DNA of 64,000 nucleotides from a virus (lineage: Duplodnaviria; Caudoviricetes): IMG/VR virus record IMGVR_UViG_3300032281_000616, positions 138,206 to 202,205 of that record. The stretch is one strand, 5' to 3'. Below the pieces are notes generated by a model. That model was not told where the DNA came from, ran no database searches, and saw nothing but the letters and a program-made list of their open reading frames with translations. Shown one piece after another: positions 5,667 to 47,780 of the stretch. Position 1 is the stretch's first letter. Every line of letters starts with the position of its first letter. The position numbers were made by a program, and so were the translations under genes.

Positions 5667-5689
5667 TGTGGTGATTTATTATTTTGAAA

Positions 5690-5801
5690 TCAAGTGATAG
5701 GACTCGAACCTATAATAATGCCGGTTGTGACGATGCGCTCGGGACAGTGCTATTTTACGCTTATCCTATTACTCACTTACCAGTGTGTCTGCCACACTTA
5801 A
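5690..5801 (-). ncRNA. 112-nt tRNA-like RNA (acceptor stem and T-arm, non-canonical middle)
   Basis: TTAAGTG/CACTTGA closing stem; ATAGG-TTCGAGT-CCTAT T-arm. Confidence 0.55.
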
Positions 5802-5875
5802 AATTATCAGAAAATTTGATAGTAACGCTACACCATCATATTCGGGGGTGGATACAGCCAGATTCTTAGACTTAT

Positions 5876-11030: not shown

Positions 11031-11105
11031 TGAGAGAGACAGGATTCGAACCTGCATCGATCCATTACGGTACTACGGAGTAGAATTCCGTTCCGATACA
11101 CTCCC
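11031..11105 (-). ncRNA. tRNA-like RNA lacking a D-arm, possible anticodon TCT
   Basis: GGGAGTG/CTCTCTC acceptor; ACGGA-ATTCTAC-TCCGT hairpin; GCAGG-TTCGAAT-CCTGT T-arm. Confidence 0.45.
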
Positions 11106-11374: not shown

Positions 11375-11539
11375 TTAGTGTTTTATGTGACCATTCTCTT
11401 TCAGATATCTAATGATAGCATCTTGGTCTGACTTTGTGTAATATCTTTTCAGTTTTCGTCTAGTTTGAATTGTATCCAAACCTTTGTATGAATTGACAAA
11501 GGATTCATGGAATACTAAACCTTTGATGACAACACTCAC
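11375..11539 (-). CDS. 54-aa protein ending KH* (GTG start)
   Basis: translated manually. Confidence 0.45.
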   Translation of the reverse strand: MSVVIKGLVFHESFVNSYKGLDTIQTRRKLKRYYTKSDQDAIIRYLKENGHIKH

Positions 11540-11546
11540 AATAAAA

Positions 11547-11622
11547 TGGTCCTCCTAACCAGATTCGAACTGGTAACTAACGGTTTATGAAACCGCTACT
11601 CTGACCGTTGAGTTATAGGAGG
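11547..11622 (-). tRNA. tRNA anticodon CAT, probably tRNA-Ile2 (lysidine) rather than Met
   Basis: 76-nt cloverleaf CCTCCTA/TAGGAGG, loop TTCATAA, encoded CCA; C4-G69 and C5-G68; adjacent to tilS. Confidence 0.9.
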
Positions 11623-11627
11623 ATATA

Positions 11628-12239
11628 TTACAAATAAAATTTCTTTAATACGACTTTCTCCAACCCTCTTCGTTCTTCGATTTTAGGAAGGATTTCATTT
11701 CTAATCCAGTTTCTTTCATATTTACTATCTGAATTGGTTTCATCAACTACTACATATCCAGATAATCCTCTTTTATCAACCCAATCCTCTAAATTAGATT
11801 TACTGTTTTTAATAAAAGGTCGCAGCAAAGTAAAATTATCAAACTCACTAATTTGTTGAATCGGTTTATATTCTGGACAACCTTTTAGACAATTCATAAT
11901 ATACTGTTCAACACAATCACCTAGATGATGACAGACTATAATTGATTCACCAATCTCATCGAAGAAACTTAATCTCTCTTGTCTCAAATTATCTTCAATG
12001 TTCTTAGTGTATTTTACGCGACATTCACCAATTGTCAAATGAATTTTGTAGTCATCACAAAACTTTCGACAAACATCAACCATCTTTAGATTCTGTTCTC
12101 TTTGATTATGATTGAAGTGGATAGCTTTGAAATTATAACCTAATGTTAAAAGAAGATGAGAGCATGCTAAACTATCAACTCCACCAGAGATAGCAACCGA
12201 AAATTGCTCAGGAATGATTTTTCTATTGATATGAATCAT
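11628..12239 (-). CDS. tilS: tRNA(Ile)-lysidine synthetase, catalytic domain only (start MIHINRK)
   Basis: PP-loop SGGVDS, HFNHNQR, HHLGDCVE, LLRP, DETN...YERNWIR. Confidence 0.85.
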   Translation of the reverse strand: MIHINRKIIPEQFSVAISGGVDSLACSHLLLTLGYNFKAIHFNHNQREQNLKMVDVCRKFCDDYKIHLTIGECRVKYTKNIEDNLRQERLSFFDEIGESIIVCHHLGDCVEQYIMNCLKGCPEYKPIQQISEFDNFTLLRPFIKNSKSNLEDWVDKRGLSGYVVVDETNSDSKYERNWIRNEILPKIEERRGLEKVVLKKFYL

Positions 12240-12254
12240 TATTGTATGAGATAG

Positions 12255-12271
12255 CCGCACCCGGACTCGAA
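12255..12271 (-). repeat. 17-bp duplicate of tRNA-Leu T-arm/acceptor 3' end (other copy 12972-12988)
   Basis: CCGCACCCGGACTCGAA flanks the endonuclease gene on both sides. Confidence 0.8.
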
Positions 12272-12297
12272 AATACACTTTTAGACTAAATAGTATT

Positions 12298-12957
12298 ATG
12301 AAGATGCTTAATTGTGATAGGTGTAATGAAGAATTCGAAGTTTCATATGACCAATGGAAGAATCGGAGGAGTAAAAAGAAAATCCATAATAGGAATAATT
12401 ATTGTTCGCTGGAATGCAGATTATTGGGACAAGGAAAAAGCCCAAGAATAGAAGTTTCGTGTGAAAGTTGTGGTTGTTTTTTTATGAAACATTATAGCGA
12501 GGTTACGAGAACCCCTAAAAATTTTTGTTCTAGATCTTGCTCTGCTACATATAACAACACTCACAAAACAAAGGGTAATCGCAGAAGTAAGTTAGAAAAA
12601 TGGTTAGAAGAACAATTAACTGTGTTATATCTAGAACTAGAAATTCTATATTCGAACAAAACCACCATTAATTCTGAGCTTGATATTTATATACCATCCC
12701 TAAAATTAGCCTTTGAACTTAATGGAATATTCCATTATGAACCAATATATGGTGAAGATAAGCTAAATCAAATCCAAAACAATGATAATAGAAAATTTCA
12801 GGCTTGTTTAGAGAAAGGTATCGAATTATGTATTATCGATACTTCTCAACACAAATACGTTAAGCCTTCTACTTCACAAAAATATCTTGATATTATCACA
12901 CATTTAGTTAACTCTAAATTAGAGTCATCCAAAACAGACTACGTGGAAGTAGTGTGA
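12298..12957 (+). mobile_element. free-standing homing endonuclease (Cys-rich N-terminus, PD-(D/E)xK/Vsr-like C-terminus)
   Basis: CxxC and CSxxC repeats; ELDIYIPSLKLAFELNGIFHY. Confidence 0.7.
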
Positions 12958-12968
12958 TTTCCTGTTTC

Positions 12969-13087
12969 TGACCGCACCCGGACTCGAACCGGGAAGCCTT
13001 TCGGCGGCAGATTTTCGACAAGGTATAATATATTTCACTTATACCCTATTAGAAAGTCTGCGATGTTTACCTTTTCATCATACGGCC
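12969..13087 (-). tRNA. tRNA-Leu (UAA after removal of a 38-nt anticodon-loop insert)
   Basis: GGCCGTA/TGCGGTC acceptor, A73, Leu-type D-loop, GCAGA/TCTGC stem, long variable arm CGCCGAAAGGCTT, T-arm CCCGG-TTCGAGT-CCGGG; 45-nt loop instead of 7. Confidence 0.8.
13016..13053 (-). other. 38-nt putative tRNA mini-intron
   Basis: CTT^TCTAATAGGGTATAAGTGAAATATATTATACCTTGTCG^AAAA; removal restores CUUAAAA. Confidence 0.65.
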
Positions 13088-13099
13088 ATTGATTTTTAG

Positions 13100-13267
13100 T
13101 TATCCTACATATTCTTCAGTGTCAATATCAATCAATTCATTGTCGTAAACTGATCCATCCTCTTCATTGAATACACATTCCATATCCATGATCTTATCAT
13201 TGAGATCATCTTCATCTTCAGCATTGATAAAGACATTAAATTTCATTGTTACGATGTATTGCTTCAT
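13100..13267 (-). CDS. 55-aa acidic protein (not in ORF track)
   Basis: MKQYIVTMKF...; ATG 6 nt after motif. Confidence 0.65.
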   Translation of the reverse strand: MKQYIVTMKFNVFINAEDEDDLNDKIMDMECVFNEEDGSVYDNELIDIDTEEYVG

Positions 13268-13292
13268 GTCAGTAGTTTACTTTAGTGTTTCA

Positions 13293-13664
13293 TCAATCAA
13301 AATCGAATCCAAGAAGAAAATACCAATTTCCGATCTTAGCTTCTCTCAATCCACCCCTAGAAAATTCATATCCAATTTGGGAATCATATACATAATCCCA
13401 ATCATCTGGTCTATAACCTTCACAACAAGCGAAGACTGGATATGATTCGTAATAGTCCTCTCTAGCTCCCATCTTATTATTGATCTCTCCTAGAGAGTAT
13501 GGAGATGATGGTTTGGATGATTTAATCCTTTCAGCTATTTCATCTGCTTTCTTATAGATCTCATCAGCGATAGGTTGATATTCTTTAGGCCAACCTTTAC
13601 GTGATTGATAATGATTATAATCATGAACCCATTGAGGGAAATCAGATATTGTTCTGAAGTTCAT
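13293..13664 (-). CDS. hypothetical protein
   Basis: ORF. Confidence 0.7.
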   Translation of the reverse strand: MNFRTISDFPQWVHDYNHYQSRKGWPKEYQPIADEIYKKADEIAERIKSSKPSSPYSLGEINNKMGAREDYYESYPVFACCEGYRPDDWDYVYDSQIGYEFSRGGLREAKIGNWYFLLGFDFD

Positions 13665-13665
13665 A

Positions 13666-13989
13666 TCAAAAGATTTGGTTCAACATATCCATAACTCTTT
13701 CCTTGAGCCTAACATCCCAACCGGGAACTCTATTGATTCTTTTTGTTTTAAGGATACCTTTGTTTGTTACTGTATTAACCGCACATATCCTGACAGCATC
13801 AGTACCGCACTTCTTCGATACACCATTAGGAGAAATTGAAGAGTAAACAAATAGACTGATATTTGGATTCTTTTTAGTTTGATAAGCGTATACATATTCA
13901 TTACCCTTAATGGTTTTGCTCCAGCCTTTATCATGCTTTAGAAGAGCATCCATTTCCAATTCTGTAATAGTGCAATAAGTAGCAGCCAT
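13666..13989 (-). CDS. hypothetical protein
   Basis: ORF plus motif. Confidence 0.7.
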   Translation of the reverse strand: MAATYCTITELEMDALLKHDKGWSKTIKGNEYVYAYQTKKNPNISLFVYSSISPNGVSKKCGTDAVRICAVNTVTNKGILKTKRINRVPGWDVRLKERVMDMLNQIF

Positions 13990-14014
13990 ATTAGGATTGT
14001 GAGTTAGTGTTTCA

Positions 14015-14356
14015 TCAGTTTTCTTTAACGTCTTTCAATCCAAGAATAAACATAAAAGCGCACACGATTCGAGTGGCGAATTTAGCGAATCCTTCCACAT
14101 AAAACATATCAAATACAGATAGACTACCAGACCTGATAGCCCATGAGTATCCAATAAGACCAACAATCATACCTAAGACATATCCTAGACCGTTTCTAGT
14201 ATGTCCAAGGATTAAATAAGCACCACCAAGACCACTAATGAATCTTAGGCATGTACCAAAGCCTCCCAGACTAAAATCCAAGAAACACCCAAAAGCCAAA
14301 AATAGTAATCCAATAATGATTCGAAATCCACCTAAAATATTTATTATTGAATTCAT
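14015..14356 (-). CDS. multi-pass membrane protein
   Basis: about 4 hydrophobic Gly-rich segments. Confidence 0.7.
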   Translation of the reverse strand: MNSIINILGGFRIIIGLLFLAFGCFLDFSLGGFGTCLRFISGLGGAYLILGHTRNGLGYVLGMIVGLIGYSWAIRSGSLSVFDMFYVEGFAKFATRIVCAFMFILGLKDVKEN

Positions 14357-14370
14357 AATTATACAACCCC

Positions 14371-14407
14371 GAGGGGTTTAGTAGGGATAGAACCTACTAA
14401 ACCCCTC
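14371..14407. terminator. 15-bp perfect hairpin
   Basis: GAGGGGTTTAGTAGG-gatagaa-CCTACTAAACCCCTC. Confidence 0.55.
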
Positions 14408-14417
14408 CATCCCACCT

Positions 14418-14834
14418 TTAGACGCCGATTTCCACCACAGTCTCGACATCTGAATCATCAGAACTTCCTGATACTTCTGCCTTAAGTTGTGCAGTAAGTT
14501 CAGCCAACTTCTTACGAAGACGCTCTTGCTTCTTAGCTTCCTTAGCAGCAGCCTTTTCTTCTTCTGTAAGAACCACCTTCTCAACCTTAACCTTCTTAGC
14601 AAGATTAAGACCATCTACCACGATGGCAAAGGTATCCACTTCTTGTGGATCACCATTATCATCAGGCATAAGCCCTACTTGATTGTTGAATGCTACTTCT
14701 AGGAGAAGAGTGATTACACCTTTATCAGTAAGGTTATAATCTTCCTTCAACTTTTGAAGTGTTGCCTTTTGTTCTTCGCTAACATTCACTACGACTTGTT
14801 TAGCGACCGACTTCTTTTCTGTTTCAGTTTCCAT
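14418..14834 (-). CDS. hypothetical charged/coiled-coil protein
   Basis: ORF plus motif. Confidence 0.7.
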   Translation of the reverse strand: METETEKKSVAKQVVVNVSEEQKATLQKLKEDYNLTDKGVITLLLEVAFNNQVGLMPDDNGDPQEVDTFAIVVDGLNLAKKVKVEKVVLTEEEKAAAKEAKKQERLRKKLAELTAQLKAEVSGSSDDSDVETVVEIGV

Positions 14835-21640: not shown

Positions 21641-21717
21641 ATCATTATTTAATCTATCAACCTATTAATTCTACTTTATTATCCATATTATCAAAAATTA
21701 TTATCAGAAAACGTTTA

Positions 21718-21748
21718 TACTCTGCTCTGCCATCTGAGCTATACCTCC
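21718..21748 (-). ncRNA. isolated tRNA 5' half (acceptor 5' strand and D-arm)
   Basis: GGAGGTA-TA-GCTC-AGATGGCA-GAGC-A-GAGTA with no T-arm downstream. Confidence 0.55.
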
Positions 21749-21760
21749 GTTTTATATATG

Positions 21761-21878
21761 TGGAGGCAGGATGATTCGAACATCCGACACGAGGGATTCA
21801 TTCCTTAGTATTTGCTGTATGTTTTCTTATCAAGTTACATTTTTTGCTACGTGTCCTAGCCAATTAGACGATACCATC
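21761..21878 (-). ncRNA. 118-nt tRNA-like element with about 46 extra nt in the anticodon region and mismatched halves
   Basis: GTCT/GGAC D-arm, GGATG-TTCGAAT-CATCC T-arm; acceptor GATGGTA vs TGCCTCC has 2 mismatches. Confidence 0.5.
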
Positions 21879-21936
21879 TTTCATAGAAAGCGATGGCAGT
21901 GTTAACGGGAGTTGCTTTAAGTTTTGTTTCGAACAT
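21856..21936 (-). CDS. 26-aa leaderless ORF overlapping the tRNA-like element
   Basis: MFETKLKATPVNTAIAFYERWYRLIG; ATG 6 nt after motif -10. Confidence 0.4.
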   Translation of the reverse strand: MFETKLKATPVNTAIAFYERWYRLIG

Positions 21937-21971
21937 GTTGTTAGTTTAACTTAGTGTTTTACGAAGTCAAG

Positions 21972-22233: not shown

Positions 22234-23034
22234 TCAATAATCTTGGCAAGGATCGTTATTATGTCCGGGAAACAGATCTTCTCCAGCCTGTAGTTTCTTT
22301 GAAATCACATAAGCAATTCCATCTTGGAAGATGTAGTTATCAATATCATTATAGTTAGTTAGATTGAAGTTATCAACCTTATCACAAGCCCACCATGAAC
22401 CATTTTTTTGTTGATCGGTGCATTCAATAGCCCAATTGTGATCAATTCTATAAAGCATTTCATGTCTTTCCACACGACATTTACCTTCTAGGTCCTTATG
22501 AGAGAAGAACTGCTCACAGAACATATTAAGACTATTACGTTCCCAATTCTTTACTCTCCATAGGAAGACATTAGCGACATCATCTTTAGGACATTGAAAT
22601 GCACGGGCATAAAATACAGCAGGTGTGGAATCCATATAATCCCACTGATTAAAATGTTCATGATTACTATGATCTTTAAGCAACCAATTTTTATTAAAGT
22701 ATGCTGTCATCATTGCAGCCGTAACACTTTCAATCTTATTCTGTCTACCACCAAACCATTGTTGAGTGTCAATAGTAGCATCATCAGTTAATACAAATGT
22801 TACTTCATCACTCTGAGCATACAGAGCTTTACATCCTTGCATTTGTTGTGCTACTTCTTTAGCAGAGTCAAACATACAAGTGATCAATGTTTGATCGAAT
22901 GGTCTTTGACAACCCTTAGTCCATGTATGAAAACTTTTCCCGTCAAGTCTCACAATAATTGGAGTCTTTGGTAGAAAGTAGTGTTCGTAAATACTTTCGT
23001 AATTTTTGCAGCGGTCGCCCAAATTGTCTTTCAT
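22234..23034 (-). CDS. thg1: tRNA-His guanylyltransferase Thg1-like protein
   Basis: IVRLDGKSFH, YAQSDEVTF, FxARAF, WRxxNWERN. Confidence 0.88.
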   Translation of the reverse strand: MKDNLGDRCKNYESIYEHYFLPKTPIIVRLDGKSFHTWTKGCQRPFDQTLITCMFDSAKEVAQQMQGCKALYAQSDEVTFVLTDDATIDTQQWFGGRQNKIESVTAAMMTAYFNKNWLLKDHSNHEHFNQWDYMDSTPAVFYARAFQCPKDDVANVFLWRVKNWERNSLNMFCEQFFSHKDLEGKCRVERHEMLYRIDHNWAIECTDQQKNGSWWACDKVDNFNLTNYNDIDNYIFQDGIAYVISKKLQAGEDLFPGHNNDPCQDY

Positions 23035-23648: not shown

Positions 23649-23799
23649 TTGAGTGTGTGGAATTCGAATCCACGATTAACAGCTATAGACCATTTTGGGT
23701 ATATAAGGCATTCTCAACGTTCCCGAATACCTTATATATTATTCCCTCTCAGAGTTTTCGAATTACTCCAACCTCGTATCCACAGAGGATTACACTCAA
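23649..23799 (-). ncRNA. 151-nt tRNA-like RNA with 8-bp acceptor-like stem and T-arm
   Basis: TTGAGTGT/ACACTCAA; GTGGA-TTCGAAT-TCCAC; 14-bp internal stem TATATAAGGTATTC/GAATGCCTTATATA. Confidence 0.6.
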
Positions 23800-33628: not shown

Positions 33629-33882
33629 AAATTCTCAGAAGACCTGATTCTAACACGCCTTCCGCTGGAGTCAATAACCCAGAATGATTTTTGTGGGGAT
33701 TCCAAAAATTCATCAATAGCTATCTCATCCTGTAGATCTTCTATTTCTTCAATTAGATTGTCTACTTCCTTTTTATAGTCTATTGGAGGATAAACTAACT
33801 CAAAGGAGTCGATACTTTTTTCTATATCGAGCTTCTTTTTGAGAAGTTCTTTATATTTCTGCTCGTAATCTTCTTGAAGCAT
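33625..33882 (-). CDS. coiled-coil hypothetical protein
   Basis: ORF. Confidence 0.6.
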   Translation of the reverse strand: MLQEDYEQKYKELLKKKLDIEKSIDSFELVYPPIDYKKEVDNLIEEIEDLQDEIAIDEFLESPQKSFWVIDSSGRRVRIRSSENL

Positions 33883-34541
33883 TAGTGTGTCCTATTGTGG
33901 TCAAGGATGCGTATCGATTTTGTAGACATCACATCTTCAATCTCTGAATACGTCCAAACATCATTCTTATAATCCCAACCAAGATCCAATCCTTTTTGAT
34001 CTGCTGATTCTGGTCTACGTCCTTTATCTTGCATATGAGAATGACCAGACAGCATCCATGAGCCTCTAGCGTCTCCTACCCATATCCTCAATGGAAAATG
34101 ATTCATGATAATCTGCTGTTTACCAATCCAGATTTCTTGATGATTACCAAGAAATACTACATTATTCATGCGAAGAGGATAAATTTCAATATCATCTCTT
34201 CCGAATTGTTTGATCATTTCTTGCTTATAGAGACGATACATTTGTGATTCATGATTACCGAAAAGCATCATGATATTTTGACACTTGATGCTATTCAACC
34301 AACCAATCACTTCTCCATCGGTAGCCGACAGAAAGCTATCTCCAAGAATCCATAAGATTTGATTCTCTCCAACCTTAGCATTGATCTTCTCTCTGACATC
34401 ATTATAAGATTCTTCTGGTGAGTTGTAACCCCTCATCTTCCAAATAGGAACTGGCCAACTTGGATCATGATAATTATGAAAATCTGTAGACCAGAAATGA
34501 TCGTTTCGATTTTCGTATTTGTATTTTAGTATCTTATACAT
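33882..34541 (-). CDS. calcineurin-like metallophosphoesterase
   Basis: STDFH, ILGD, FGNHE, NHFP, GHSH. Confidence 0.85.
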   Translation of the reverse strand: MYKILKYKYENRNDHFWSTDFHNYHDPSWPVPIWKMRGYNSPEESYNDVREKINAKVGENQILWILGDSFLSATDGEVIGWLNSIKCQNIMMLFGNHESQMYRLYKQEMIKQFGRDDIEIYPLRMNNVVFLGNHQEIWIGKQQIIMNHFPLRIWVGDARGSWMLSGHSHMQDKGRRPESADQKGLDLGWDYKNDVWTYSEIEDVMSTKSIRILDHNRTH

Positions 34542-34770
34542 TCTCTATTTCTTTAATGATTTCGTCAATCCCTTGAATGATTGTAACGTTTTCTCCATCC
34601 TCAACAACTAAGCGAGGGACAGATCTAATTTCATGTTTAGTGAAAAAATCCCTGTCCCCAGCCAAGCTATAATCCTTCACCTCTACCTCTAGACCAAGTT
34701 TGGATAGCTTAGATTTAAGCATCGAACATGGTCCACATGAGGGAGATATACATAAGGTATTTTTTTTCAT
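34534..34770 (-). CDS. glutaredoxin/thioredoxin-like protein
   Basis: CGPC, RSVP. Confidence 0.8.
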   Translation of the reverse strand: MKKNTLCISPSCGPCSMLKSKLSKLGLEVEVKDYSLAGDRDFFTKHEIRSVPRLVVEDGENVTIIQGIDEIIKEIENV

Positions 34771-34802
34771 ACCCACAAATGGTAACACACCCAAAGGTGA
34801 AG

Positions 34803-34946
34803 TCAAGGTAAAAATAAACCCACTGTGCTTGAGATAGTCTTATTGTCCACGCGACCTTCGGACAACTCCTGCACTCGTTTGATTACTTTACCCATATCCT
34901 TCTTAGAAGTTGCTCCTAATTCTAGGATTGTGTTCTTAACCATCAT
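34803..34946 (-). CDS. 47-aa protein resembling the C-terminal half of YqeY/GatB
   Basis: ELGATSKKDMGKVIKRVQELSEGRVDNKTISS. Confidence 0.5.
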   Translation of the reverse strand: MMVKNTILELGATSKKDMGKVIKRVQELSEGRVDNKTISSTVGLFLP

Positions 34947-34948
34947 AA

Positions 34949-35185
34949 TCAATTTTCTCCCTCCATTTTATAAATTTCATCCGACAAACTATCATATAAA
35001 TGAATAAGTCTTTTGCTTACACAATTCTCATCATGTTTAATATCACTAATAGAATTCATACTACGATTTCGACAAAATATACAAGTATTTGTTAAATCCC
35101 ACATACCAGATGTTTCAATATAATTGTAATTATTGGATATACTATCAACAACATCTCTCAAATCTTCTAAATCTTGTATGAACAT
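34949..35185 (-). CDS. hypothetical protein
   Basis: ORF plus motif. Confidence 0.6.
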   Translation of the reverse strand: MFIQDLEDLRDVVDSISNNYNYIETSGMWDLTNTCIFCRNRSMNSISDIKHDENCVSKRLIHLYDSLSDEIYKMEGEN

Positions 35186-35207
35186 ACTCGTATTATATCT
35201 TAGTGTT

Positions 35208-36278
35208 TTATAATTCTGATTCTATTGCAGATTTGATAAGCTTATCTTCCACTACCTTGTTGTCTAGGGTAACGAACCCGTAGGATTCCCGCCAATCTTG
35301 CCAGTGTTGCATGATACACATAGCTTGATCCTTTCGAGTGAATGAATCACCTCTGATACCATCGATGACATGATCAACCTTCTTCATCTTTTCTAAGACT
35401 TTATTGTAAGCAGTAACGATCTTGAACATATCATCTTTGATTTTCTCAGCTATCTCAAAATCCATAGTGAATTTTACAAAATTATAAAAATCCTCATATT
35501 TTGTAAACTTCTCAGTAGTCATAAACAAATCGAGAACTTGGTTAATATTCTTGATACCAGTAGCGAGTGAATGTAGAGATAAATATAAGTCCGCTTTAAT
35601 CTTCTTAAGTGTATTTCCATCTGGTGAATATAAAACTACACCCTCCGCGTGTTCCCACACTTTAATATCCATAATACACTCTTCCACTGTTTTGTAGTGA
35701 TATCTTTTTGGTCGAGATATATTCCATTTCTGAGCATATGAATCAACCTCGTCCTGTGGAAACATTATAGCAGTCTCATTATCTACGATTGCTAGTAATG
35801 TTAATGTTGGTATATTGTGTTCTCTCAAAACAATAATCCTACTTGGTCCAGTGTGTTCAAAGATTACAGAATGTTTACCATCTCTAACGAAGTTCTTAAT
35901 ATCTGGATAAAATTCGATCAACTTATGGACTTCTGGACCCGTTTCTTGAGTAAAAACCGATTCAACTCCTCTTGTTCTCAAAATCATTTGATTATTGTGA
36001 CATGAAAATATAATTGTCGATCCATCAATCTTATGCAATGCTTGAACGGGCCAAGAATGATCCCATGATTGAAATTCAGGATCTTCATGCCAATTTTTAA
36101 ATTTAGGCAACGATTGAGAAAGAACCTTATTATCTGACTTACGAACGATGCATGAACGAAATCGTGCATTTTCATCAGTCCACTTACAACCAATATGGTT
36201 CGGGGTGATAAGCCAGCAATCATCTCCTGCGATAACACAGTCTTTGTAAGTGAATTCTTCAGTCGTTGGTAGCTTCAT
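35208..36278 (-). CDS. RNA ligase 1 (T4 Rnl1-like; start MKLPTT)
   Basis: PKFKN, HKIDGS motif I, EGVVL, KKIKADLYL. Confidence 0.82.
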   Translation of the reverse strand: MKLPTTEEFTYKDCVIAGDDCWLITPNHIGCKWTDENARFRSCIVRKSDNKVLSQSLPKFKNWHEDPEFQSWDHSWPVQALHKIDGSTIIFSCHNNQMILRTRGVESVFTQETGPEVHKLIEFYPDIKNFVRDGKHSVIFEHTGPSRIIVLREHNIPTLTLLAIVDNETAIMFPQDEVDSYAQKWNISRPKRYHYKTVEECIMDIKVWEHAEGVVLYSPDGNTLKKIKADLYLSLHSLATGIKNINQVLDLFMTTEKFTKYEDFYNFVKFTMDFEIAEKIKDDMFKIVTAYNKVLEKMKKVDHVIDGIRGDSFTRKDQAMCIMQHWQDWRESYGFVTLDNKVVEDKLIKSAIESEL

Positions 36279-36981
36279 ACTCAGCATTATGGTTTAGTGT
36301 TTTATCAAGTAACACCACCGTTTTATTATCTACCCAATAATACTCTTGAGCATTTTCGTCAACAAATCTGTTCCATGCTTCTTGTAAATAATCTGGTGTA
36401 TTGGGAATTTTTGGGTAATCTTCGCCAATTTCACCGATATTCTCAAAATGCCTTGAAATCATTTCATCTAAATCACAACCATTGATAGTGTAATGTTTAG
36501 TAGATCCCATTACATACTCTGGAAGAGGATAATCATAATCCCAACAATCTCTAAGATCATCTACACCACCATAATAGAAAGTGTCCCCATCAAAGACAGG
36601 TTGCCAATAATCGGCTTCATCTACCTTTATAGCACTATCATAGATTCTCTTATCCCTAGCCTCACAATAGGCATTCATAGCCTTGGAATTACACATTTTA
36701 ACCTCTTCTTGTGATAGATATTTCTCAAGAACTTGTTTTTGCCAATATTCCATTGTATATTTGGGAACTTTATCAATACCATCTTGTGCAATAAAAGATG
36801 ATTGTGTTTCAGGATTGAATGCGATATTTTTATACTTTACCCCATCCTTCAACTCTGGATTAATCCAATTATTAACGACTTTAAGAATCTCTTCCCATCT
36901 CTCTTCAGAGAAGAGTGGTTGAAAATATTCCAGAGGATAATTTGTTAGTTGAATATAGTTCCCGAGTTTATTGTTTTTCAT
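36259..36981 (-). CDS. hypothetical protein
   Basis: ORF; C-terminus reads through motif (KTLNHN). Confidence 0.7.
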   Translation of the reverse strand: MKNNKLGNYIQLTNYPLEYFQPLFSEERWEEILKVVNNWINPELKDGVKYKNIAFNPETQSSFIAQDGIDKVPKYTMEYWQKQVLEKYLSQEEVKMCNSKAMNAYCEARDKRIYDSAIKVDEADYWQPVFDGDTFYYGGVDDLRDCWDYDYPLPEYVMGSTKHYTINGCDLDEMISRHFENIGEIGEDYPKIPNTPDYLQEAWNRFVDENAQEYYWVDNKTVVLLDKTLNHNAEYEATND

Positions 36982-37399
36982 ACTTAGCCTTCAATTCTTC
37001 TAATTTTTTACGTTCTGCTGCTTCTTGTGCAGCCGCTTCTTCTTTATCCCAGATATCTTTCCATTTCTTCCACTCTTTCAACTCTTCGGAATGTTTTTTC
37101 TTATCTTTATTATATTTTCTTAATTCAGATTTATAGTTTGGATTCTCGATATCCTCTTCTGAAAATTCGATCAAATATGCTTCGATAGATGGAATATCTG
37201 ATGGATAATAACAACACCCATAATCGTGATCTAAAGACAGTTTATATCGTCTACCTTCTTCAAAGATCAATTCGTCTCCATCACTCACTCTAACCTTAGA
37301 TAATTCACTATATGCTGGGATAGTTTTATTCGGTTTTTGTGTGAGTAATTTAGGCGGCCAAGTAGCACGAAACCACTTTGGATATTTAGATTTAGCCAT
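36968..37399 (-). CDS. hypothetical protein
   Basis: ORF. Confidence 0.7.
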   Translation of the reverse strand: MAKSKYPKWFRATWPPKLLTQKPNKTIPAYSELSKVRVSDGDELIFEEGRRYKLSLDHDYGCCYYPSDIPSIEAYLIEFSEEDIENPNYKSELRKYNKDKKKHSEELKEWKKWKDIWDKEEAAAQEAAERKKLEELKAKYEKQ

Positions 37400-37401
37400 A
37401 C

Positions 37402-37803
37402 TTATCGTAGTTTAAGATTTTCTCTAATGGTTTTCTCTTGGCGTTTCAGAGTTTCCTCTGGTACCGAGTGTACATCCCTACCACCGTGCCTATTTTCAAG
37501 CACAATAAAGGTCACAATGAACCCAAGATCTTCAGCTTGTTTCACATACTTGTTCCAATCAGAGGGTTTAGCATTTACATTAGCGATGATGATATCCTTA
37601 TCGGTTCCCAAAGCATCAACAAATTTGTTCCAACAATATCCATGAGCTTTCCCAAGACCCTCGGGATACCACTTATAATTACCTCCCTTATCAGTGAAGT
37701 AATCATCAGCACAGCATACTAAGGCATCAGGAAAAAGATTACAAAAAGTAGTCTTACCCGCTCCAGATACACCCCGAAGTACAATTAAATTTCTTTGTTT
37801 CAT
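37402..37803 (-). CDS. P-loop polynucleotide-kinase-like protein (AAA_33 type)
   Basis: LRGVSGAGKTT, CCADDYF, ENRHG...HSVPEE. Confidence 0.82.
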   Translation of the reverse strand: MKQRNLIVLRGVSGAGKTTFCNLFPDALVCCADDYFTDKGGNYKWYPEGLGKAHGYCWNKFVDALGTDKDIIIANVNAKPSDWNKYVKQAEDLGFIVTFIVLENRHGGRDVHSVPEETLKRQEKTIRENLKLR

Positions 37804-37804
37804 A

Positions 37805-38092
37805 TTATCGATTCCTTTTAGCTTTTGCTTTCTCTTGCCTAATCAACTTAGCTTCTTGCTTATTTGGAATATGTTCTCTGGTTGATAAGACTTCTTTCAA
37901 TCTATCAAAATAATTACTATAGAGTTGTAAAGAAATTTCTGCTTCTTCTAAAAGATATCGTCTATCCTCTGCAACACCTTCCGCCTTTGTTTTATAGGCA
38001 CGGATAGTCTCAAAATAAGACATCAATTCTCTTGTATTCCATTTTTCAATCTCTTCTATAGGATACTCATTCCAACATTCTCTTTTTGACAT
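37805..38092 (-). CDS. hypothetical protein
   Basis: ORF plus motif. Confidence 0.65.
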   Translation of the reverse strand: MSKRECWNEYPIEEIEKWNTRELMSYFETIRAYKTKAEGVAEDRRYLLEEAEISLQLYSNYFDRLKEVLSTREHIPNKQEAKLIRQEKAKAKRNR

Positions 38093-38106
38093 AATTTTAT
38101 TATACT

Positions 38107-38412
38107 CTAGTGTTTAATAATTTCTATTTTAGTTTCCTCGGTCACTTTAGCCTTTTTATTATACAACAAATCACCATGTATATTGAACCACCAGATACCC
38201 ATAGATTCTTGAAGAGGGTATTCGTCTTCTTCATTGTATGGAAGCTCATCATAAGCTTCGTATGCGGCATCTAATCCATCCTTTTCAAAGACATCGATGA
38301 CTTTAATCAACGCATCCCGATACTTCTTTTTCTTAAAGATTCTACGGATTCTATTTCTCTCCTCTTCGGGGTCGAATTCAATTGTAGTTACCTTAGTCTT
38401 GATTATTTTCAT
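38107..38412 (-). CDS. hypothetical protein ending KH*
   Basis: ORF. Confidence 0.65.
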   Translation of the reverse strand: MKIIKTKVTTIEFDPEEERNRIRRIFKKKKYRDALIKVIDVFEKDGLDAAYEAYDELPYNEEDEYPLQESMGIWWFNIHGDLLYNKKAKVTEETKIEIIKH

Positions 38413-38582
38413 TTATGTGAATTATATGCCTTTTCTAAACCGTTCGTTGAGTCTTCTTTGGTTTTACCTATAACAGATATACCTAAAGGTTGATAATATG
38501 CTATCCAAAAGGATTCAGCTTCTAAATATCTGATATCTTTCGCTATTTCAGAAAAATCTGGTAAAGTCTTTTTATCTGTCAT
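38409..38582 (-). CDS. 57-aa protein (not in ORF track)
   Basis: MTDKKTLPDF...; ATGA overlap. Confidence 0.5.
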   Translation of the reverse strand: MTDKKTLPDFSEIAKDIRYLEAESFWIAYYQPLGISVIGKTKEDSTNGLEKAYNSHK

Positions 38583-38583
38583 A

Positions 38584-38625
38584 TTATCGCAATTCTATGG
38601 TTTTTGGCCAATCTGGAAATACTGA
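38584..38625 (-). pseudogene. displaced duplicate of 2H-phosphoesterase 3' end
   Basis: SVFPDWPKTIELR* vs SAYPSWPKTIEIR. Confidence 0.7.
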
Positions 38626-38629
38626 TCCG

Positions 38630-39607
38630 TTATTCTTTTTTCCAAAGGAAACCTTTGTAATGTTTTTTTGTTCCAGCAAAAACCGCTGATATTGGAGAAA
38701 AATTGAACATATTAAAATATTTTTTAATTTCTGTTGAAGTTTCCCAAACCTTTATCAAGTTCCCTGACATATCATATTGACCAATGTTGCGAAGTATCAA
38801 CTTATCTGGATTGCTCATTTTTTGTCTACTTTCACATATTCTAGTTTTTATATAATCAACTATCTCTCTTTTGGTTTTCTTTTCATATGAAAAGAAATAT
38901 CCTTTATATGAAATATTCTTACCCATAGCAACATGAGATATACTACAAATACTTTTAAGATTTAGTGCATCAGCACAACTCCTAGCATCTTTCCATATTC
39001 CCACAAAACACCCATCCAACATGTATGCGTATACATTTTTCCGCCTATAATCTCCATTTTTTGGAATTATATTGTAGTCTTTTAAAATTTTTAAAACTAC
39101 ACTATGACTCAATCCCAATTCCCTCGAAACACCCAAAGCATTTTTGGTTTCTTTATAAAGCTTAAGAACATCGATTTCGTAAGGTTCCCTTTTCTTTCTT
39201 TTTGTTATATTTGTCTTTTCTATGATAGACTTGGAGACTTTATAACCGACATTACTTTCTGCGGTGGGTCTAGAATTGTAACCATTATTACAACTATCGT
39301 ATTTGGTAATATAAAACGTCTCCATCTCTATTATATTCCCACCATCGCAAGAATCTATGATTTCGAATGTAAGATTTTCTCCGCCATACTTATTATAAGC
39401 ATATTGTAATTTTTTCGAATAATGTATTCCCAATTTAAGTAAATCAGCGTGTTTACCCCATCTAGTTCTAATTCCGTAATAACTACCTTTCCGAATACTC
39501 GCAGAACTTCCTATATAAACTTTATTAGATGTTGAATTAATAAATGTTAATTTATATACGCCTGTAGTAACTGGCCAACTTTTCCTATCTTGTAATGTGT
39601 ATACCAC
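38630..39607 (-). mobile_element. GIY-YIG homing endonuclease (NUMOD1-like repeats)
   Basis: TGVYKL...KVYIGSS; GYNS; QYDMSGNLIKVWE. Confidence 0.85.
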
Positions 39608-39611
39608 AATA

Positions 39612-40073
39612 CTATTTAGTCATTGTGGTAGCATTTTTTTCTCTAATTTCGATAGTTTTTGGCCAACTGGGATAAGCTGAATTAAATTTTCCATTCGCTA
39701 TAGTCAAATGAATTCCTTTAAATCTTTCACCATCTACAACTTCAACCTTCTTCTTGATCTTATCTAGTTCTTGCGAATACACTCTAAGGTAATACATTAA
39801 GAATCCCTTGGTATAACCACCTTCAACAATGTTCTCATCATAATCAAACTCGATAGTTTTACCACGATAATACATAGCTTTCTCCCAGTTGATTTTCTTG
39901 TTAAATTTTTGAGAATATAAAGTGATATGAGCCCCGTGCATTGGTCTGTTCATTCTGATCCAATACTTACGCTGAATAAACCAATAATAAAGCTCAACAA
40001 GATCTTGAGAAACATCAAGAACCATACGACCTTTGTGTGGTTGAACATTTATAACTCCAGACGCCTTTAACAT
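39612..40073 (-). CDS. 2H phosphoesterase-family protein
   Basis: two HxT motifs: GAHITL and GIHLTI. Confidence 0.7.
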   Translation of the reverse strand: MLKASGVINVQPHKGRMVLDVSQDLVELYYWFIQRKYWIRMNRPMHGAHITLYSQKFNKKINWEKAMYYRGKTIEFDYDENIVEGGYTKGFLMYYLRVYSQELDKIKKKVEVVDGERFKGIHLTIANGKFNSAYPSWPKTIEIREKNATTMTK

Positions 40074-40098
40074 GTCTAAATTGTAATCTAGTGTTTAA

Positions 40099-40647
40099 TC
40101 AAGTCCAAAGTGATTGTCTAAGTCTAACGATACCCATCATAGCCCATGTATCTTTCTCTTCAATCAAAGCCTCCAAACGATGAACTTCGGCATATGCATC
40201 CTTGTAAGATTTACCATAAATTTGTTCACATGTTCTCATTTGATATACTTTATTCCCATCTTTATCAATTTCATCAATATGATCAAAGAAATTACCACCA
40301 TCAAGAGGTTTAGGATATGACACATCCAACTCTTTTTGGAGTTGTGGTCTAATGTTTTTAATGTAGTCATAAATCTCCTCTAGTTCCTTTCTGATTGGTT
40401 CTCTGATAAGTCTCCAATCTTCAGATTCTCCTGTATATCTCTCACCCCAAATCGACTCCAATCCTTCTTCATCTTCCACGAAATTCACAAGTATTTCAAA
40501 AAGAATAATGGGAATAAGCTCTACCTTATCACAAAAATGATTTGGGATTTTTTTGATTAACCATTTTTGTCTTGGATTAAACCAATCTCGAATATTATAA
40601 AATTGTTCTTTCCACCAATAGCTATTTGTAATAGTTCTACGCTTCAT
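40099..40647 (-). CDS. hypothetical protein
   Basis: ORF. Confidence 0.7.
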   Translation of the reverse strand: MKRRTITNSYWWKEQFYNIRDWFNPRQKWLIKKIPNHFCDKVELIPIILFEILVNFVEDEEGLESIWGERYTGESEDWRLIREPIRKELEEIYDYIKNIRPQLQKELDVSYPKPLDGGNFFDHIDEIDKDGNKVYQMRTCEQIYGKSYKDAYAEVHRLEALIEEKDTWAMMGIVRLRQSLWT

Positions 40648-40756
40648 ATAATAATTCTAATTTATTAATCTCCTTTAAAACCTCATCTTTTGTCATATTA
40701 AACAAATTGTATACTGGAATTTTGTAGTGATTAGCTACGCGAATAGCTTGACTCAT
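40637..40756 (-). CDS. 39-aa peptide resembling the C-terminus of phage DprA/SLOG-like proteins
   Basis: MSQAIRVANHYKIPVYNL; ATG 6 nt after motif. Confidence 0.45.
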   Translation of the reverse strand: MSQAIRVANHYKIPVYNLFNMTKDEVLKEINKLELLYEA

Positions 40757-40770
40757 AACCGTATGATATC

Positions 40771-41439
40771 TTAGTGTTTAATGTATTTTTCAGTTAAAGG
40801 AGTTAATGATGATAATTTACCGTCTTCAATCAAATACACTTCACCGTTTTTCGGAGTCTTATATTTTTCGAATTCTTTAACAGACCAACCTAAAATATAC
40901 ATAAGATATAATTTGTTGAATTCTCCATGAGCAACTACAATATTATTCTCATAATTAGTATTACTCTTCATCCACATATCAAATAAAACTACTCTCTGAT
41001 ATGCATCCAAGAAACTCTCACCACCTTCTGGTCTATAATAGAAATTAAAATGATCCTCTGTTTTTTTACCAGCTTCTACAATATCTCTCAGAGATCCCCA
41101 ATTTCTTTCAATCAATAAAGGCATCTCCTGATAATTCTCAATATGATATCCTTCAAAATTGGTGATTTGTCCATGAATGATGTCTGCTGTTTGCCTAGCT
41201 CTTTTATATGGGCTATAAAACATATTGAACCTATAAGGTGGGTTCTTGCTAGGGTATGGATAATCGGGATCGTTTTTATGAACGATATGATCATTTAAAT
41301 CCATGATTCTGTCACCAGATTTTACAGCTTGAGCTTGTCCCTTGAGTGTGATAGATATGTCACAATCCAATTTTTCAAAATAAACAGAGGGGTTCTCGTT
41401 CCCCTCCGAACTTCCGTGGCGCACTAAATACAATTTCAT
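40771..41439 (-). CDS. histidine phosphatase (phosphoglycerate mutase family)
   Basis: LYLVRHG, SPYKRARQT, GGES, VAHG. Confidence 0.88.
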   Translation of the reverse strand: MKLYLVRHGSSEGNENPSVYFEKLDCDISITLKGQAQAVKSGDRIMDLNDHIVHKNDPDYPYPSKNPPYRFNMFYSPYKRARQTADIIHGQITNFEGYHIENYQEMPLLIERNWGSLRDIVEAGKKTEDHFNFYYRPEGGESFLDAYQRVVLFDMWMKSNTNYENNIVVAHGEFNKLYLMYILGWSVKEFEKYKTPKNGEVYLIEDGKLSSLTPLTEKYIKH

Positions 41440-41702
41440 AATAATTCAAAACTTTCCCATCTAATAAGACCCTCTGAGTCGAAGTTGCATCCACCACAAC
41501 CACCACTTCGACCATTACAAATGATACAAACTTTCCTGTGATGCTCTTTATTTAAAGATTTAATAACACCTCTCCCAGAACAATGATAACAACCAGTAGT
41601 AGATTCGTGACCACAAAAATAATCCAATTCACCCTCACCTTCACAAGCAGGACAAATCATTAAACCTGTGGATTCTATAATTTTTTTTACGCTACCTGTC
41701 AT
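41436..41702 (-). CDS. DnaJ-type CxxCxGxG zinc-finger protein
   Basis: CPACEGEG, CYHCSGRG, CIICNG. Confidence 0.7.
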   Translation of the reverse strand: MTGSVKKIIESTGLMICPACEGEGELDYFCGHESTTGCYHCSGRGVIKSLNKEHHRKVCIICNGRSGGCGGCNFDSEGLIRWESFELL

Positions 41703-43189: not shown

Positions 43190-43974
43190 AATTAACCAAT
43201 AAATTTGAAAATATACCGGGTGTTTATGTTATAACAAATTTAATCAATGGTAAAGTTTATGTCGGAGAAAGTTTAAAAATACATAAACGTATTTCGGAAC
43301 ATAAATCTAGAAAAGACAGACTTATAAGTAAAGCGTTTAAAAAATATGGTATTGAAAATTTCACAATTTATATAGAATATATGCCAAATTTTTCTAAAAA
43401 TGATTTGTGGGATTTGGAAGAACAGTTAATTTTAAAATTTGATTCATTGTCTCCAAAAGGATATAATATATGTTCGCGTGGCGATGGTCCTGTTGGCTTG
43501 AAACATTCACCAGAATCCAAGCTCAAAATGAGTGAATCACAAAAACTAATAGCAAAATACGGTTCCGAAAATCCACTCAGCAAGCCTGTGTATGTTTATG
43601 GAATAAATGGAAAATTTATCAAACATTTTATAGGTTATACTCAAGCAGGGAGAGAATTGGGGTTATCTCATTCGACTATTATAGGTGTTTTAGATGGAAC
43701 ACATTTGCAAAGCAAAGGATACATATTCAAAAAAGAATATATGGGGAAAGAAATTACACCAATTTCAAATAACGAAATCGAAAGCAAATCAACAAAAAGA
43801 AAAGTTGCTCGCTGTGATATAGAAGGTAATATACTAGAAAAATTCGATTCTGTTTGGGATGCAGCAGTATCCACTAATACAAGTAGACAAGCCATCACAG
43901 GAGCGTTGAGGGGATTAACCAAAAAATCAAAATTTCGACTATGTAAAGGATTCAGATGGAAGTATTTAAATTAA
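43186..43974 (+). mobile_element. GIY-YIG homing endonuclease
   Basis: PGVYVITNLINGKVYVGES; GYN; HSPESKLKMS. Confidence 0.88.
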
Positions 43975-45368
43975 TTTTCATCTTCTAGATTTAATTCATC
44001 TCTATCCCTTTCCTCAGATTCCCTAACTAAGAAATTTGGACTCTTATATTTAAAAACTGGTTTCGTTTCTCGACTATTGATTTTTATAACAACACCCTCA
44101 TTAACAACACCTGTTGTACAATATTCACAAATTTTATCGAGATATTTTTCTTTTGTCTTCTTCATCCAATTATCACCCCAAGCATCATTAAGCGGAATAT
44201 CTGGAAATAAATCTTTGGCCTTCCCTTTAAAATAAACAGGAACAGTTTTTAATCCAATTTCTTCACAAAGCCTTTCAATTTCTTCCCATGTAAATTCATA
44301 ATAATTTCCACATTCATCAACTTTACTAGCCCTGTATACCCATAATTCGGATTCTCCTTTGATCACCCCATAATCATACTGACTTTGAATAGTTTTGTTT
44401 GGAGAAGCCCATCCTAAAATTTCACCAAATATTTCGACACCCTTTGGAAGCTTTCCCTCTATTAGTTCGGCGTGTTTCCCATAAAGATTATCTGTATATT
44501 TCCCATCTCGTCTATTTTGTAATATATTTCTACTGGAATACACAAGCTTATATTCAGTCTTTGGTATATTCAACCCAAAATATGATAATACACTTTCGCT
44601 TAATCCTAAATTTCTTTTACATAAGACGTAACCAGCACAAAAACTCGTTCCGTGAATTTTTGATGTGATTGTTATATCATCATCTGGTTGTAGTATCCAA
44701 CTATTTTTGTAAAAATTCTCTGTTTTATAGTGTTGTCTGAATTGTCCATCAACAATAAGAGACTTGATACCATCGTCCTTAGATAGACCATAGTACCACT
44801 TAACTACAGGGAAAATGGTAGTCCTAACAGTGCGAGGGAAAATACCCAAGGTTGTATTAATCCACTTAGGAATTTTATTTTTGGATGTATTATTCTCATT
44901 GTTAGACTTAGCCTCTGGTCTAATGTATTTGGTTACAAGTAAATCCTCACCAACAGTATCAAATGATTCACCCAAGGCAAAAATTCTAGGAGAAATGTTG
45001 TAATATTTGGCCAATTCCTCAATCTTATACAAGAACCCTTGAGATGGAATTCCGCGCAATTTGACAGCTTTTACACGATTACCCTTTTGCGAGAAAAATC
45101 CCTTAGTCTTCCCATCAGCATTAAGAATTTCCTTATCATATAAATTAGCCCATGACAAGAACTTAGGCGATAGACAAGATTCTACAGGGAAGTAAACACA
45201 TAGGTCATCCTTCACATAAGATCCTTTTCCTAATACCACAGTATTACCAAAAATTTCTGTCAACTCCAACTTATCCGCATTTGGATGATTTGTAATTTCT
45301 CCAATTTTGACTACTGTAGCCAAGTAATTCGGATCTGCGTTTTCTGATACTTTCAATTTAGTTTCCAT
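43971..45368 (-). CDS. RNA ligase, Rnl2/DRB0094-like with N-terminal OB-like domain
   Basis: HPNADKLE...CVYFP; TSKIHGTS motif I; FGEI; EGVVI; FKYKS. Confidence 0.85.
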   Translation of the reverse strand: METKLKVSENADPNYLATVVKIGEITNHPNADKLELTEIFGNTVVLGKGSYVKDDLCVYFPVESCLSPKFLSWANLYDKEILNADGKTKGFFSQKGNRVKAVKLRGIPSQGFLYKIEELAKYYNISPRIFALGESFDTVGEDLLVTKYIRPEAKSNNENNTSKNKIPKWINTTLGIFPRTVRTTIFPVVKWYYGLSKDDGIKSLIVDGQFRQHYKTENFYKNSWILQPDDDITITSKIHGTSFCAGYVLCKRNLGLSESVLSYFGLNIPKTEYKLVYSSRNILQNRRDGKYTDNLYGKHAELIEGKLPKGVEIFGEILGWASPNKTIQSQYDYGVIKGESELWVYRASKVDECGNYYEFTWEEIERLCEEIGLKTVPVYFKGKAKDLFPDIPLNDAWGDNWMKKTKEKYLDKICEYCTTGVVNEGVVIKINSRETKPVFKYKSPNFLVRESEERDRDELNLEDEN

Positions 45369-47758: not shown

Positions 47759-47780
47759 GTCCGTATTATTCATTAGTGTT

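Follow-up and report, generated by a model that had tools for sequence, protein, structure and literature searches.

A conserved 38-nt hairpin insert at position 34/35 of a phage tRNA-Leu(UAA) gene, a candidate mini-intron with relatives in freshwater T4-like phages

The window analyzed here, a stretch of 64,000 nt, is the last 64 kb of a complete virus record of 202,205 bp with direct terminal repeats. The phage is T4-like and encodes rIIA/rIIB, Rnl1, ThyX and many homing endonucleases; public sequencing runs containing parts of the window are labelled as freshwater metagenomes. Ten tRNA genes were found in the genome, and the only tRNA-Leu among them is a split gene at 13087..12969, which is organized as follows.

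12969..13087, minus strand: interrupted tRNA-Leu(UAA) gene (ARAGORN with introns allowed, RNAfold, RNAalifold)
13054..13087, minus strand: 5' exon, tRNA positions 1-34, last bases C32 U33 U34
13016..13053, minus strand: candidate mini-intron, a 38-nt insert starting with UCUAA and ending with UCG
12969..13015, minus strand: 3' exon, tRNA positions 35-73, first bases A35 A36 A37 A38
13018..13049, minus strand: hairpin of the insert, 11-bp stem and 10-nt apical loop (GUGAAAUAUA)
13012..13056, minus strand: 45 nt separating the two strands of the anticodon stem (normally 7)

Once the insert is removed, all features of a bacterial class II tRNA-Leu are present according to ARAGORN and the consensus fold. 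These comprise a 7-bp acceptor stem with two G.U pairs, a D arm with GG (G18G19), the anticodon stem GCAGA/UCUGC, a 13-nt variable arm, a standard T arm and T-loop, and A73; CCA is not encoded. The insert sits exactly between U34 and A35, and its removal restores the loop CUUAAAA with the anticodon UAA. With introns allowed, ARAGORN reports a tRNA-Leu(UAA) with a 38-nt intron (gactt-intron-aaaat); the split gene is missed both by ARAGORN without the intron option and by the Rfam tRNA model. Alternative cut points would produce the anticodons GAA, UUA or UUC, and insert-free genes read CTTAAAA, so the boundaries of the insert are not arbitrary. The insert is single-copy, as no second copy was found elsewhere in the genome. 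A preliminary description, drawn from the letters of this locus, had already recognized a complete Leu-type body with a long variable arm, A73 and an anticodon loop of 45 nt, and had placed the restored CUUAAAA at the deletion of 13016-13053; the first point agrees with ARAGORN and the fold, and the second with the insert-free relatives. Its statement that the insert follows a U and ends in G is true of the window copy, and the 9-bp hairpin it described is real and extends to 11 bp in RNAfold.

The complete 119 nt are folded by RNAfold into a perfect cloverleaf (-45.6 kcal/mol, z = -5.0), and none of 200 shuffled sequences was equally stable. In this structure the anticodon arm is lengthened into a rod of about 20 bp, in which the 5-bp stem is followed by a C32.A38 mismatch, four pairs, a 2x1 internal loop and the 11-bp hairpin. 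The four pairs are U33-A37, U34-A36, i1(U)-A35 and i2(C)-i38(G), with i1 being the first base of the insert. Both splice sites are located within the helix, one per strand, flanking the i1(U):A35 pair.

The codon usage of the phage is of interest here, as UUA is its commonest Leu codon (35% of Leu codons, 29 per 1000) and AUA accounts for 33% of its Ile codons. A short TilS-like PP-loop protein of 203 aa is encoded at 11547-12239 (minus strand), with a tRNA(CAU) directly after it; the two genes are probably a self-contained AUA-decoding module. In addition, the window contains several unusual tRNA-like elements. A weak Rfam tRNA match (33 bits) at 11031-11105 (minus strand) has a nearly absent D arm, a long variable region and the anticodon-loop sequence AUUCUAC, and is not called by ARAGORN. 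At 21700-21950 (minus strand), next to a Thg1-like gene (22234-23034), the 3' acceptor strand TGCCTCC of a tRNA-like gene is mismatched to its own 5' strand and instead fits an orphan 5' half, GGAGGTA..., located 13 nt downstream. Two further RNAs of about 110-150 nt (5667-5875 and 23649-23799, minus strand) combine tRNA-type acceptor stems and T arms with large non-canonical centres, one of them with a long internal hairpin.

The 3' end of the split tRNA gene is directly adjoined by a mobile element, while the small ORFs neighbouring the tRNA gave no Pfam or PHROG match.

12255..12971: homing-endonuclease cassette of 717 bp at the 3' end of the tRNA, recognized by its absence from the related contigs X2, X3 and X4
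12298-12957, plus strand: ORF of the cassette, matching HNH and homing-endonuclease PHROGs

Direct repeats of 17 nt border the cassette (12255-12271 and 12972-12988) and correspond to the T-arm/acceptor end of the tRNA. The X2, X3 and X4 contigs join 12254 to 12972 and thus do not have the cassette. Since these cassette-free relatives carry the identical insert, the endonuclease is a separate, later arrival and the insert is older. A homing endonuclease at this tRNA, as the preliminary description noted, is confirmed by the cassette at the 3' end, which does not belong to the insert. We also considered that the insert might shield the tRNA gene against the adjacent endonuclease and rejected this, because the identical insert occurs without the cassette and, elsewhere, a cassette lies beside an insert-free gene. 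In other relatives, this position is occupied by genes of the HNH or LAGLIDADG type (L007:1999-2445, L004:59-793).

Next, we analyzed the conservation of the locus by aligning contigs of related phages to positions 11500-14500 of the window. In X3 and X4, the segment 12972-13102, comprising the tRNA and the insert, shows 0 differences, and the flanks have diverged: the neighbouring gene differs at 43/755 nt and the other flank at 54/493 nt plus gaps. In the X2 contig, the first difference upstream of the tRNA is found at 13094. The three contigs represent three related phage populations in which the insert is identical and the flanks are 5-11% diverged. Judged by these alignments, the tRNA and its insert are under purifying selection and do not constitute a decayed gene.

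More distant relatives were reached via the neighbouring short TilS gene. Two of them, L007 and L171 (TilS 75% and 73% identical), carry a long-arm tRNA-Leu(UAA) with strongly diverged exons and a 38-nt insert at the same site as that of the window. RNAalifold places the three genes in the same extended cloverleaf with 39 pairs, 16 of which show changes on both sides. Six of the ten pairs of the insert hairpin in this three-sequence consensus belong to this group; the remaining changes fall in the acceptor stem (4), the T stem (3) and the D, anticodon and variable-arm stems (1 each). No pairs are broken except for two at alignment gaps. Within the hairpin, conservation is stronger in the apical loop (GUGARAYAUA) and the four uppermost pairs than in the lower part of the stem.

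Including the window copy, we identified eight distinct inserts of 33-39 nt, all of them at 34/35 and distributed over three kinds of tRNA, namely long-arm Leu-UAA, short-arm UAA and CAU. This small sample comes from about seven contigs of one clade of freshwater T4-like phages. Besides the gene in the window, the family comprises the following members.

L007:1873-1996: long-arm tRNA-Leu(UAA), 38-nt insert
L171:589-713: long-arm tRNA-Leu(UAA), 38-nt insert
L168:1159-1274, the same as G001 c20571-20684 (a 197-kb record): short-arm tRNA(UAA), 39-nt insert
L005/L006:3305-3414: short-arm tRNA(UAA), 33-nt insert
L186, the same as G002 c73468-73579: short-arm tRNA(UAA), 35-nt insert
L005/L006:4047-4160: tRNA(CAU) beside TilS, 39-nt insert
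G002 c73097-73205: tRNA(CAU) beside TilS, 35-nt insert

All eight share one layout, in which the anticodon stem leads into a helix containing both splice sites, then into an asymmetric internal loop and finally into a hairpin of 7-12 bp, counted as 8-12 bp in the pair tally of the eight. The first insert base is a U paired with A35 in every case, whereas the second and the last base covary (C:G in four members, U:A in the other four). The insert starts with a conserved U-Y-U followed by two variable positions; the internal loop reads UA, UAA, UCC, CC or G on its 5' side and C, CC, UC or A on its 3' side. The loop bases of the tRNA are exactly CUU...AAAA or CUC...AUAA in 8/8 members. The distance between splice sites and anticodon stem is constant, whereas hairpin length and the distance to the internal loop are variable. 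Over the eight members, the helices contain 135 Watson-Crick pairs, 16 G.U pairs and 0 A.C pairs, which fits a structure in the tRNA-sense RNA and not a DNA palindrome. The preliminary description had suggested searching related phages for inserts of variable length; such inserts do occur at the same site, but the terminal G and the pairing expected of a group I P1 helix are not kept.

Insert-free counterparts exist as well. An intact gene at L172:1142-1218 and the partial genes of L004 and L008 read CTTAAAA, L169 contains a long-arm Leu gene without insert, and further tRNA-Leu contigs without insert from the same kind of samples read ...GACTT/AAAATC.... The L008 copy is truncated at its 5' end; its retained exon parts are identical to L168, and the insert is missing to the base. 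As base 35 and the first base of the insert are different, the junctions cannot slide.

The ends of the inserts track the genome and not the kind of tRNA. For example, both inserts of L005 start with UUUCCGAG and end with UUYCAA, although one is located in a UAA and the other in a CAU tRNA, and the short-arm UAA tRNA of L168 has the insert UCUCCGG...CCUCG. This would be expected if a genome-encoded factor reads the ends or if the insert spreads within a genome. Regarding the tRNA genes themselves, the D arm of the short-arm tRNA(UAA) is that of tRNA-Leu in a comparison with Aeh1. The short-arm genes (L168, L005, L186, L172) have a variable loop of only 5 nt and appear as Leu-type tRNAs that have lost the long arm. 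In L005 and G002, the tRNA(CAU) adjoining TilS carries a mini-intron of the same family as the window insert.

Several searches defined the range of the family. An exact 28-mer of the 3' exon retrieved no further members from IMG/VR, and pattern searches with the terminal motifs added only L175 and L186 among many chance matches. A metagenome scan via TilS gave, among the matches listed, only distant relatives without inserts. In a pattern scan of bacterial genomes, 0/10 stem-compatible matches among those listed were in a tRNA context, a result that is uninformative on hosts. Cultured phages (INPHARED) yielded ordinary tRNA-Leu matches only, e.g. Aeh1 without insert.

Other unusual tRNA genes were encountered along the way. 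Genes of 90-93 nt at L004:1466-1558, L007:3480-3569 and L012:7199-7289 combine a class II variable arm with a CAU anticodon, an unusual pairing for bacterial-type tRNAs. Distant TilS-bearing phages contain oversized tRNA-like genes, on which ARAGORN forces doubtful intron calls: a 147-nt gene with a central insert of about 70 nt (L003:9192-9338) and the genes at L012:3993-4103, L016:5026-5138 and L018:4246-4345. The 111-nt genes of such phages have a second T-arm-like hairpin inside.

The window also encodes a set of RNA-repair proteins suited to healing and sealing, comprising an Rnl1-type ligase, a second RNA ligase, a P-loop kinase and phosphoesterases.

33882-34541: metallophosphoesterase; a 90-aa ORF lies between it and the Rnl1 gene
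35208..36287, minus strand: RNA ligase of the T4 gp63 (Rnl1) type, candidate sealing enzyme (phrog_562, E = 3.6e-31)
36259..36981, minus strand: 240-aa protein between the kinase and Rnl1, conserved and syntenic in G001
37402..37803, minus strand: P-loop kinase, candidate 5' end-healing enzyme (AAA_33, weak polynucleotide-kinase PHROG)
43971..45368, minus strand: second RNA ligase (PF09414 and a PHA02142 OB domain)

Further repair genes encode a HAD-type phosphatase, a cREC (cyclic-phosphate-processing receiver) domain, RlaP and a Thg1-like protein. The insert-bearing phage G001 encodes a copy of Rnl1 with 58% identity and has the same gene order of kinase, 240-aa protein, Rnl1 and metallophosphoesterase; a 143-aa neighbour, predicted to form a small sheet and a long helix, is absent from G001. 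The 240-aa protein is a candidate only by its position. It has no Pfam or PHROG match, and its AF2 model (pLDDT 83) retrieved nothing informative from the PDB (Foldseek, VIA-align; best Z 4.3) and only uncharacterised proteins from the AFDB clusters and the ESM Atlas. A search of the phage genome for the tRNA-splicing endonuclease EndA (PF01974) gave no match at E <= 1, with control genomes matched, although a remote homologue or a host enzyme could escape such a search, and the Tpt1 2'-phosphotransferase (PF01885) had no match either. The search with PF09511 found nothing in the phage genome nor in the controls and is thus uninformative; Rnl1 was found by PHROG and protein search. It is well established that tRNAs with a break in the anticodon loop are rejoined by Rnl1 and Pnkp of T4. 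However, Rnl1 and a kinase are also commonly encoded by T4-like phages that lack inserts of this kind, and the repair genes are therefore permissive and not diagnostic. The larger RNA-repair island (33882-51000), interleaved with GIY-YIG and LAGLIDADG endonuclease genes, contains two RNA ligases, the P-loop kinase, two metallophosphoesterases, a histidine phosphatase, the HAD-type phosphatase, RlaP and the cREC receiver domain.

With moderate confidence, we propose that the insert is a selected intervening sequence of a working tRNA-Leu(UAA), that it belongs to a small family of mini-introns, and that it would be excised by proteins before the tRNA is resealed. The insert is too small to splice itself, so removal and resealing by proteins appear probable. 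That it has to come out is suggested by the exactly kept loop bases, the existence of insert-free genes and the heavy use of UUA and AUA. The excision, its chemistry and the enzymes given below are what we infer from the sequences. The precursor would have no anticodon loop; its stem would continue via C32.A38 into a short pyrimidine/purine helix made of U33-A37, N34-N36, i1(U)-A35 and the pair of i2 with the last base, followed by the asymmetric internal loop and the hairpin. A postulated protein endonuclease of phage or host would cut on the 5' side of the first intron base and of A35, i.e. on either side of the invariant U:A pair. This enzyme would probably measure from the tRNA body, which is favoured by the fixed position of the sites relative to the anticodon stem in the face of a varying hairpin length. 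The tRNA halves would be held together by the other stems, the kinase and the phosphoesterases of the phage could heal the ends, and its T4 Rnl1-type ligase may then reseal the anticodon loop to CUUAAAA with the junction of GCAGACTT to AAAATCTGC. A protein-spliced intron using the repair enzymes of the phage had been one suggestion of the preliminary description; the evidence favours it, but it is unproven.

The geometry of the sites speaks against this proposal to some extent, as they are placed inside a helix and not in bulges, and the implied cuts leave a 1-nt 5' overhang. Excision by RNase III was rejected on similar grounds, because the overhang is 1 nt at the 5' end (2 nt in the other register) instead of 2 nt at the 3' end, and because hairpins of 7-12 bp place the sites at differing distances from the apical loop. 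Excision as a minihelix by RNase P and RNase Z was also rejected: the 5' site would suit RNase P if i1-A35 is the first pair, but the 3' site then falls one base into the helix, and a CCA is missing.

One alternative is that the RNA works unspliced, as a tRNA look-alike with a rod which acts as a decoy or sponge for anticodon nucleases or tRNA defence, or as a non-decoding leucine carrier. We regard this as unlikely, though several observations would suit it: the rod-shaped anticodon arm is itself the conserved, covarying feature, the splice sites are buried in the helix, the searches for splicing enzymes (EndA, Tpt1) remained without match, and the genome contains several further odd tRNA-like genes. 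Moreover, E. coli LeuRS does not read the anticodon, so that an unspliced long-arm Leu could still be charged and used otherwise. This would not account for the seven loop bases, which are fixed in all eight members although pairing alone would permit covariation, nor for relatives with insert-free genes and a normal anticodon loop. The tRNA(CAU) members are also difficult to reconcile with it, since they adjoin TilS, whose substrate is C34 of an intact anticodon loop, and since IleRS and MetRS read the anticodon. Finally, the phage would be left with its only tRNA-Leu unspliced, despite UUA being its commonest Leu codon. That insert and tRNA together form a very small novel self-cleaving or self-splicing RNA, with a ligase perhaps needed to finish the reaction, seems quite improbable to us. 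The conserved start of the insert (U-Y-U with two variable bases), the invariant U:A pair, the maintained internal loop and the apical loop of the long-arm Leu genes, better conserved than its stem, could be read as signs of a catalytic RNA; 33-39 nt of mostly plain hairpin, however, can hardly accommodate a catalytic fold, the internal loop varies in sequence (UA/C, UCC/UC, CC/C, G/A), and no Rfam ribozyme was matched.

The site of insertion, CUU/.../AAAA, is the classical position of group I introns in tRNA-Leu(UAA), as stated in the preliminary description and in agreement with Williams 2020. A decayed group I intron that lost its core, and is either unspliced or spliced in trans by a core encoded elsewhere, was therefore a natural suggestion, and in the window copy the U before the insert, the terminal G and a drawable 5-bp P1-like pairing are in line with it. 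Nevertheless, this interpretation is largely refuted by the available sequences and we find it barely credible, the insertion site being the only property shared with group I introns. Over the complete 202-kb genome the best RF00028 match reaches 13 bits (cut-off 50) and lies at another place, so that no core acting in trans was found; the last base of the insert is A in 4/8 and G in 4/8 members; and the bases drawn as P1 partner (AGGGU) take part in the covarying hairpin and are conserved in neither L007 nor L171. Furthermore, U34 pairs with A36 in the conserved helix and leaves no U.G wobble, and all members start with U in contrast to the A of classical Leu introns. The CAU members have C at -1 and are interrupted at site 3 (CUC/AUAA), which is not among the sites known for group I introns in Met or Ile2 tRNAs, fMet.2 and Ile2.5 (Williams 2020). 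At gathering thresholds, Rfam detects two other tRNAs only in the window, and at E <= 10 the region 12850-13250 yields nothing but noise of snoRNA and miRNA models, with no ribozyme and no group I intron. Another conceivable reading is that selfish DNA or an accidental insertion inactivated the gene, so that it is now a pseudogene or holds a palindromic DNA element without function as RNA; the many homing endonuclease cassettes and tRNA fragments of the region could be taken in its favour. We consider it highly improbable in view of the zero differences across diverged strains, the compensatory changes in the insert and in all tRNA stems, the bias of G.U over A.C pairs and the presence of a single copy in the genome. 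A freely drifting insert, the outcome that the preliminary description associated with a pseudogene, is not what was found, as the hairpin covaries, the U at i1 is invariant and the loop bases are kept.

The reading that we prefer, a mini-intron excised by proteins, can be compared with several known systems. Our literature search found no published account of short hairpin inserts at 34/35 or of their splicing. The nearest published case, and the only report of phage tRNA introns that this search found, is that of the Lak megaphages, whose tRNA introns were called enigmatic and were believed to be the first in phage tRNAs (Devoto et al. 2019, Nat Microbiol, PMC6784885). They resemble the present family as anticodon-loop inserts of phage tRNA genes which are unexplained by Rfam, present or absent among relatives, identical or nearly so across populations, and without a known splicing route. 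However, the Lak Tyr intron (Table S6) has 93 nt with a T-arm-like GGTTCGAATCC, and a tRNA is predicted within another case, one of the Lak introns, whereas the inserts described here are plain hairpins of 33-39 nt. The Lak phages are 540-kb phages of gut Prevotella, in contrast to 200-kb freshwater T4-like phages with inserts always at 34/35, and a common architecture with covariation, as found here, is not reported there for the Lak introns (PMC6784885).

Group I introns of the Leu.3Ug type (RF00028), known from bacterial and plastid tRNA-Leu(UAA), occupy the same insertion point of the same tRNA according to Williams 2020 (bioRxiv 10.1101/2020.01.27.920355), which treats bacterial tRNA introns as self-splicing group I ribozymes and notes that introns above about 400 bp may hold protein-coding genes. 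The present family differs from them by its missing core, by a final A in half of its inserts, by the C at -1 of the CAU genes and by a P1 pairing that is not maintained. A 2014 review placed every phage group I intron then known in a protein-coding gene (PMC3984707).

With respect to architecture, the inserts share with archaeal and eukaryal tRNA introns that they are short, lie in the anticodon arm, have no catalytic RNA and pair with bases of the anticodon loop, and excision would here precede ligation by healing and sealing. Archaeal and eukaryal splicing relies on the EndA/Sen endonuclease, a RtcB or Trl1 ligase and a bulge-helix-bulge of two 3-nt bulges that are 4 bp apart. Such a motif is absent from the minimum-energy and consensus folds of the present family, where the sites lie in a helix of 4-5 bp flanking one U:A pair and where a 1x1 mismatch and a 2x1 or 3x2 internal loop are the only unpaired elements. 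The position also differs, being 37/38 in archaea and eukaryotes and 34/35 here, and we know of no archaeal/eukaryal tRNA-splicing machinery in bacteria. The fungal and plant ligase Trl1 consists of an Rnl1-like ligase and a T4 Pnkp-like kinase (PMC3400036). The tRNA repair of T4 likewise rejoins a broken anticodon loop by means of kinase/phosphatase and Rnl1, homologues of which are encoded in the window, but there the damage is a single cut by the anticodon nuclease PrrC of the host at positions 33/34 of tRNA-Lys, whereas two programmed cuts would remove 38 nt here. A last comparison concerns the intervening sequences of bacterial 23S rRNA, where an extended hairpin takes the place of a terminal loop and a host RNase removes it post-transcriptionally. 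These are cut by RNase III, which leaves a 2-nt 3' overhang that the geometry of the window insert does not fit, and the pieces are not rejoined, whereas the anticodon loop of a tRNA must be resealed.

Altogether, the analysis gives inserts in phage tRNAs a defined anatomy, consisting of the 34/35 site, the U:A pair, the covariation of i2 and the last base, the internal loop and the covarying hairpin. The same design in three kinds of tRNA, along with the conserved block of kinase, 240-aa protein and Rnl1, provides a concrete set of candidates. To our knowledge, protein-dependent cut-and-reseal splicing of tRNAs has not yet been shown for bacteria or their viruses, and the question of whether it exists there, and of whether it is a native job of phage RNA ligases, thereby becomes testable. 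For annotation, the split genes are of relevance because standard tRNA finders overlook them. As a more tentative extension, which we consider possible but would not yet favour, infected bacteria may perform true protein-catalysed tRNA splicing with an endonuclease that cuts astride the U:A pair and with Rnl1 and the kinase as a routine splicing ligase, and the mini-introns may be a mobile family that moves among tRNA genes at 34/35. If this is true, Rnl1 and the kinase, so far known only as tools for repairing the damage of anticodon nucleases, would serve routine splicing.
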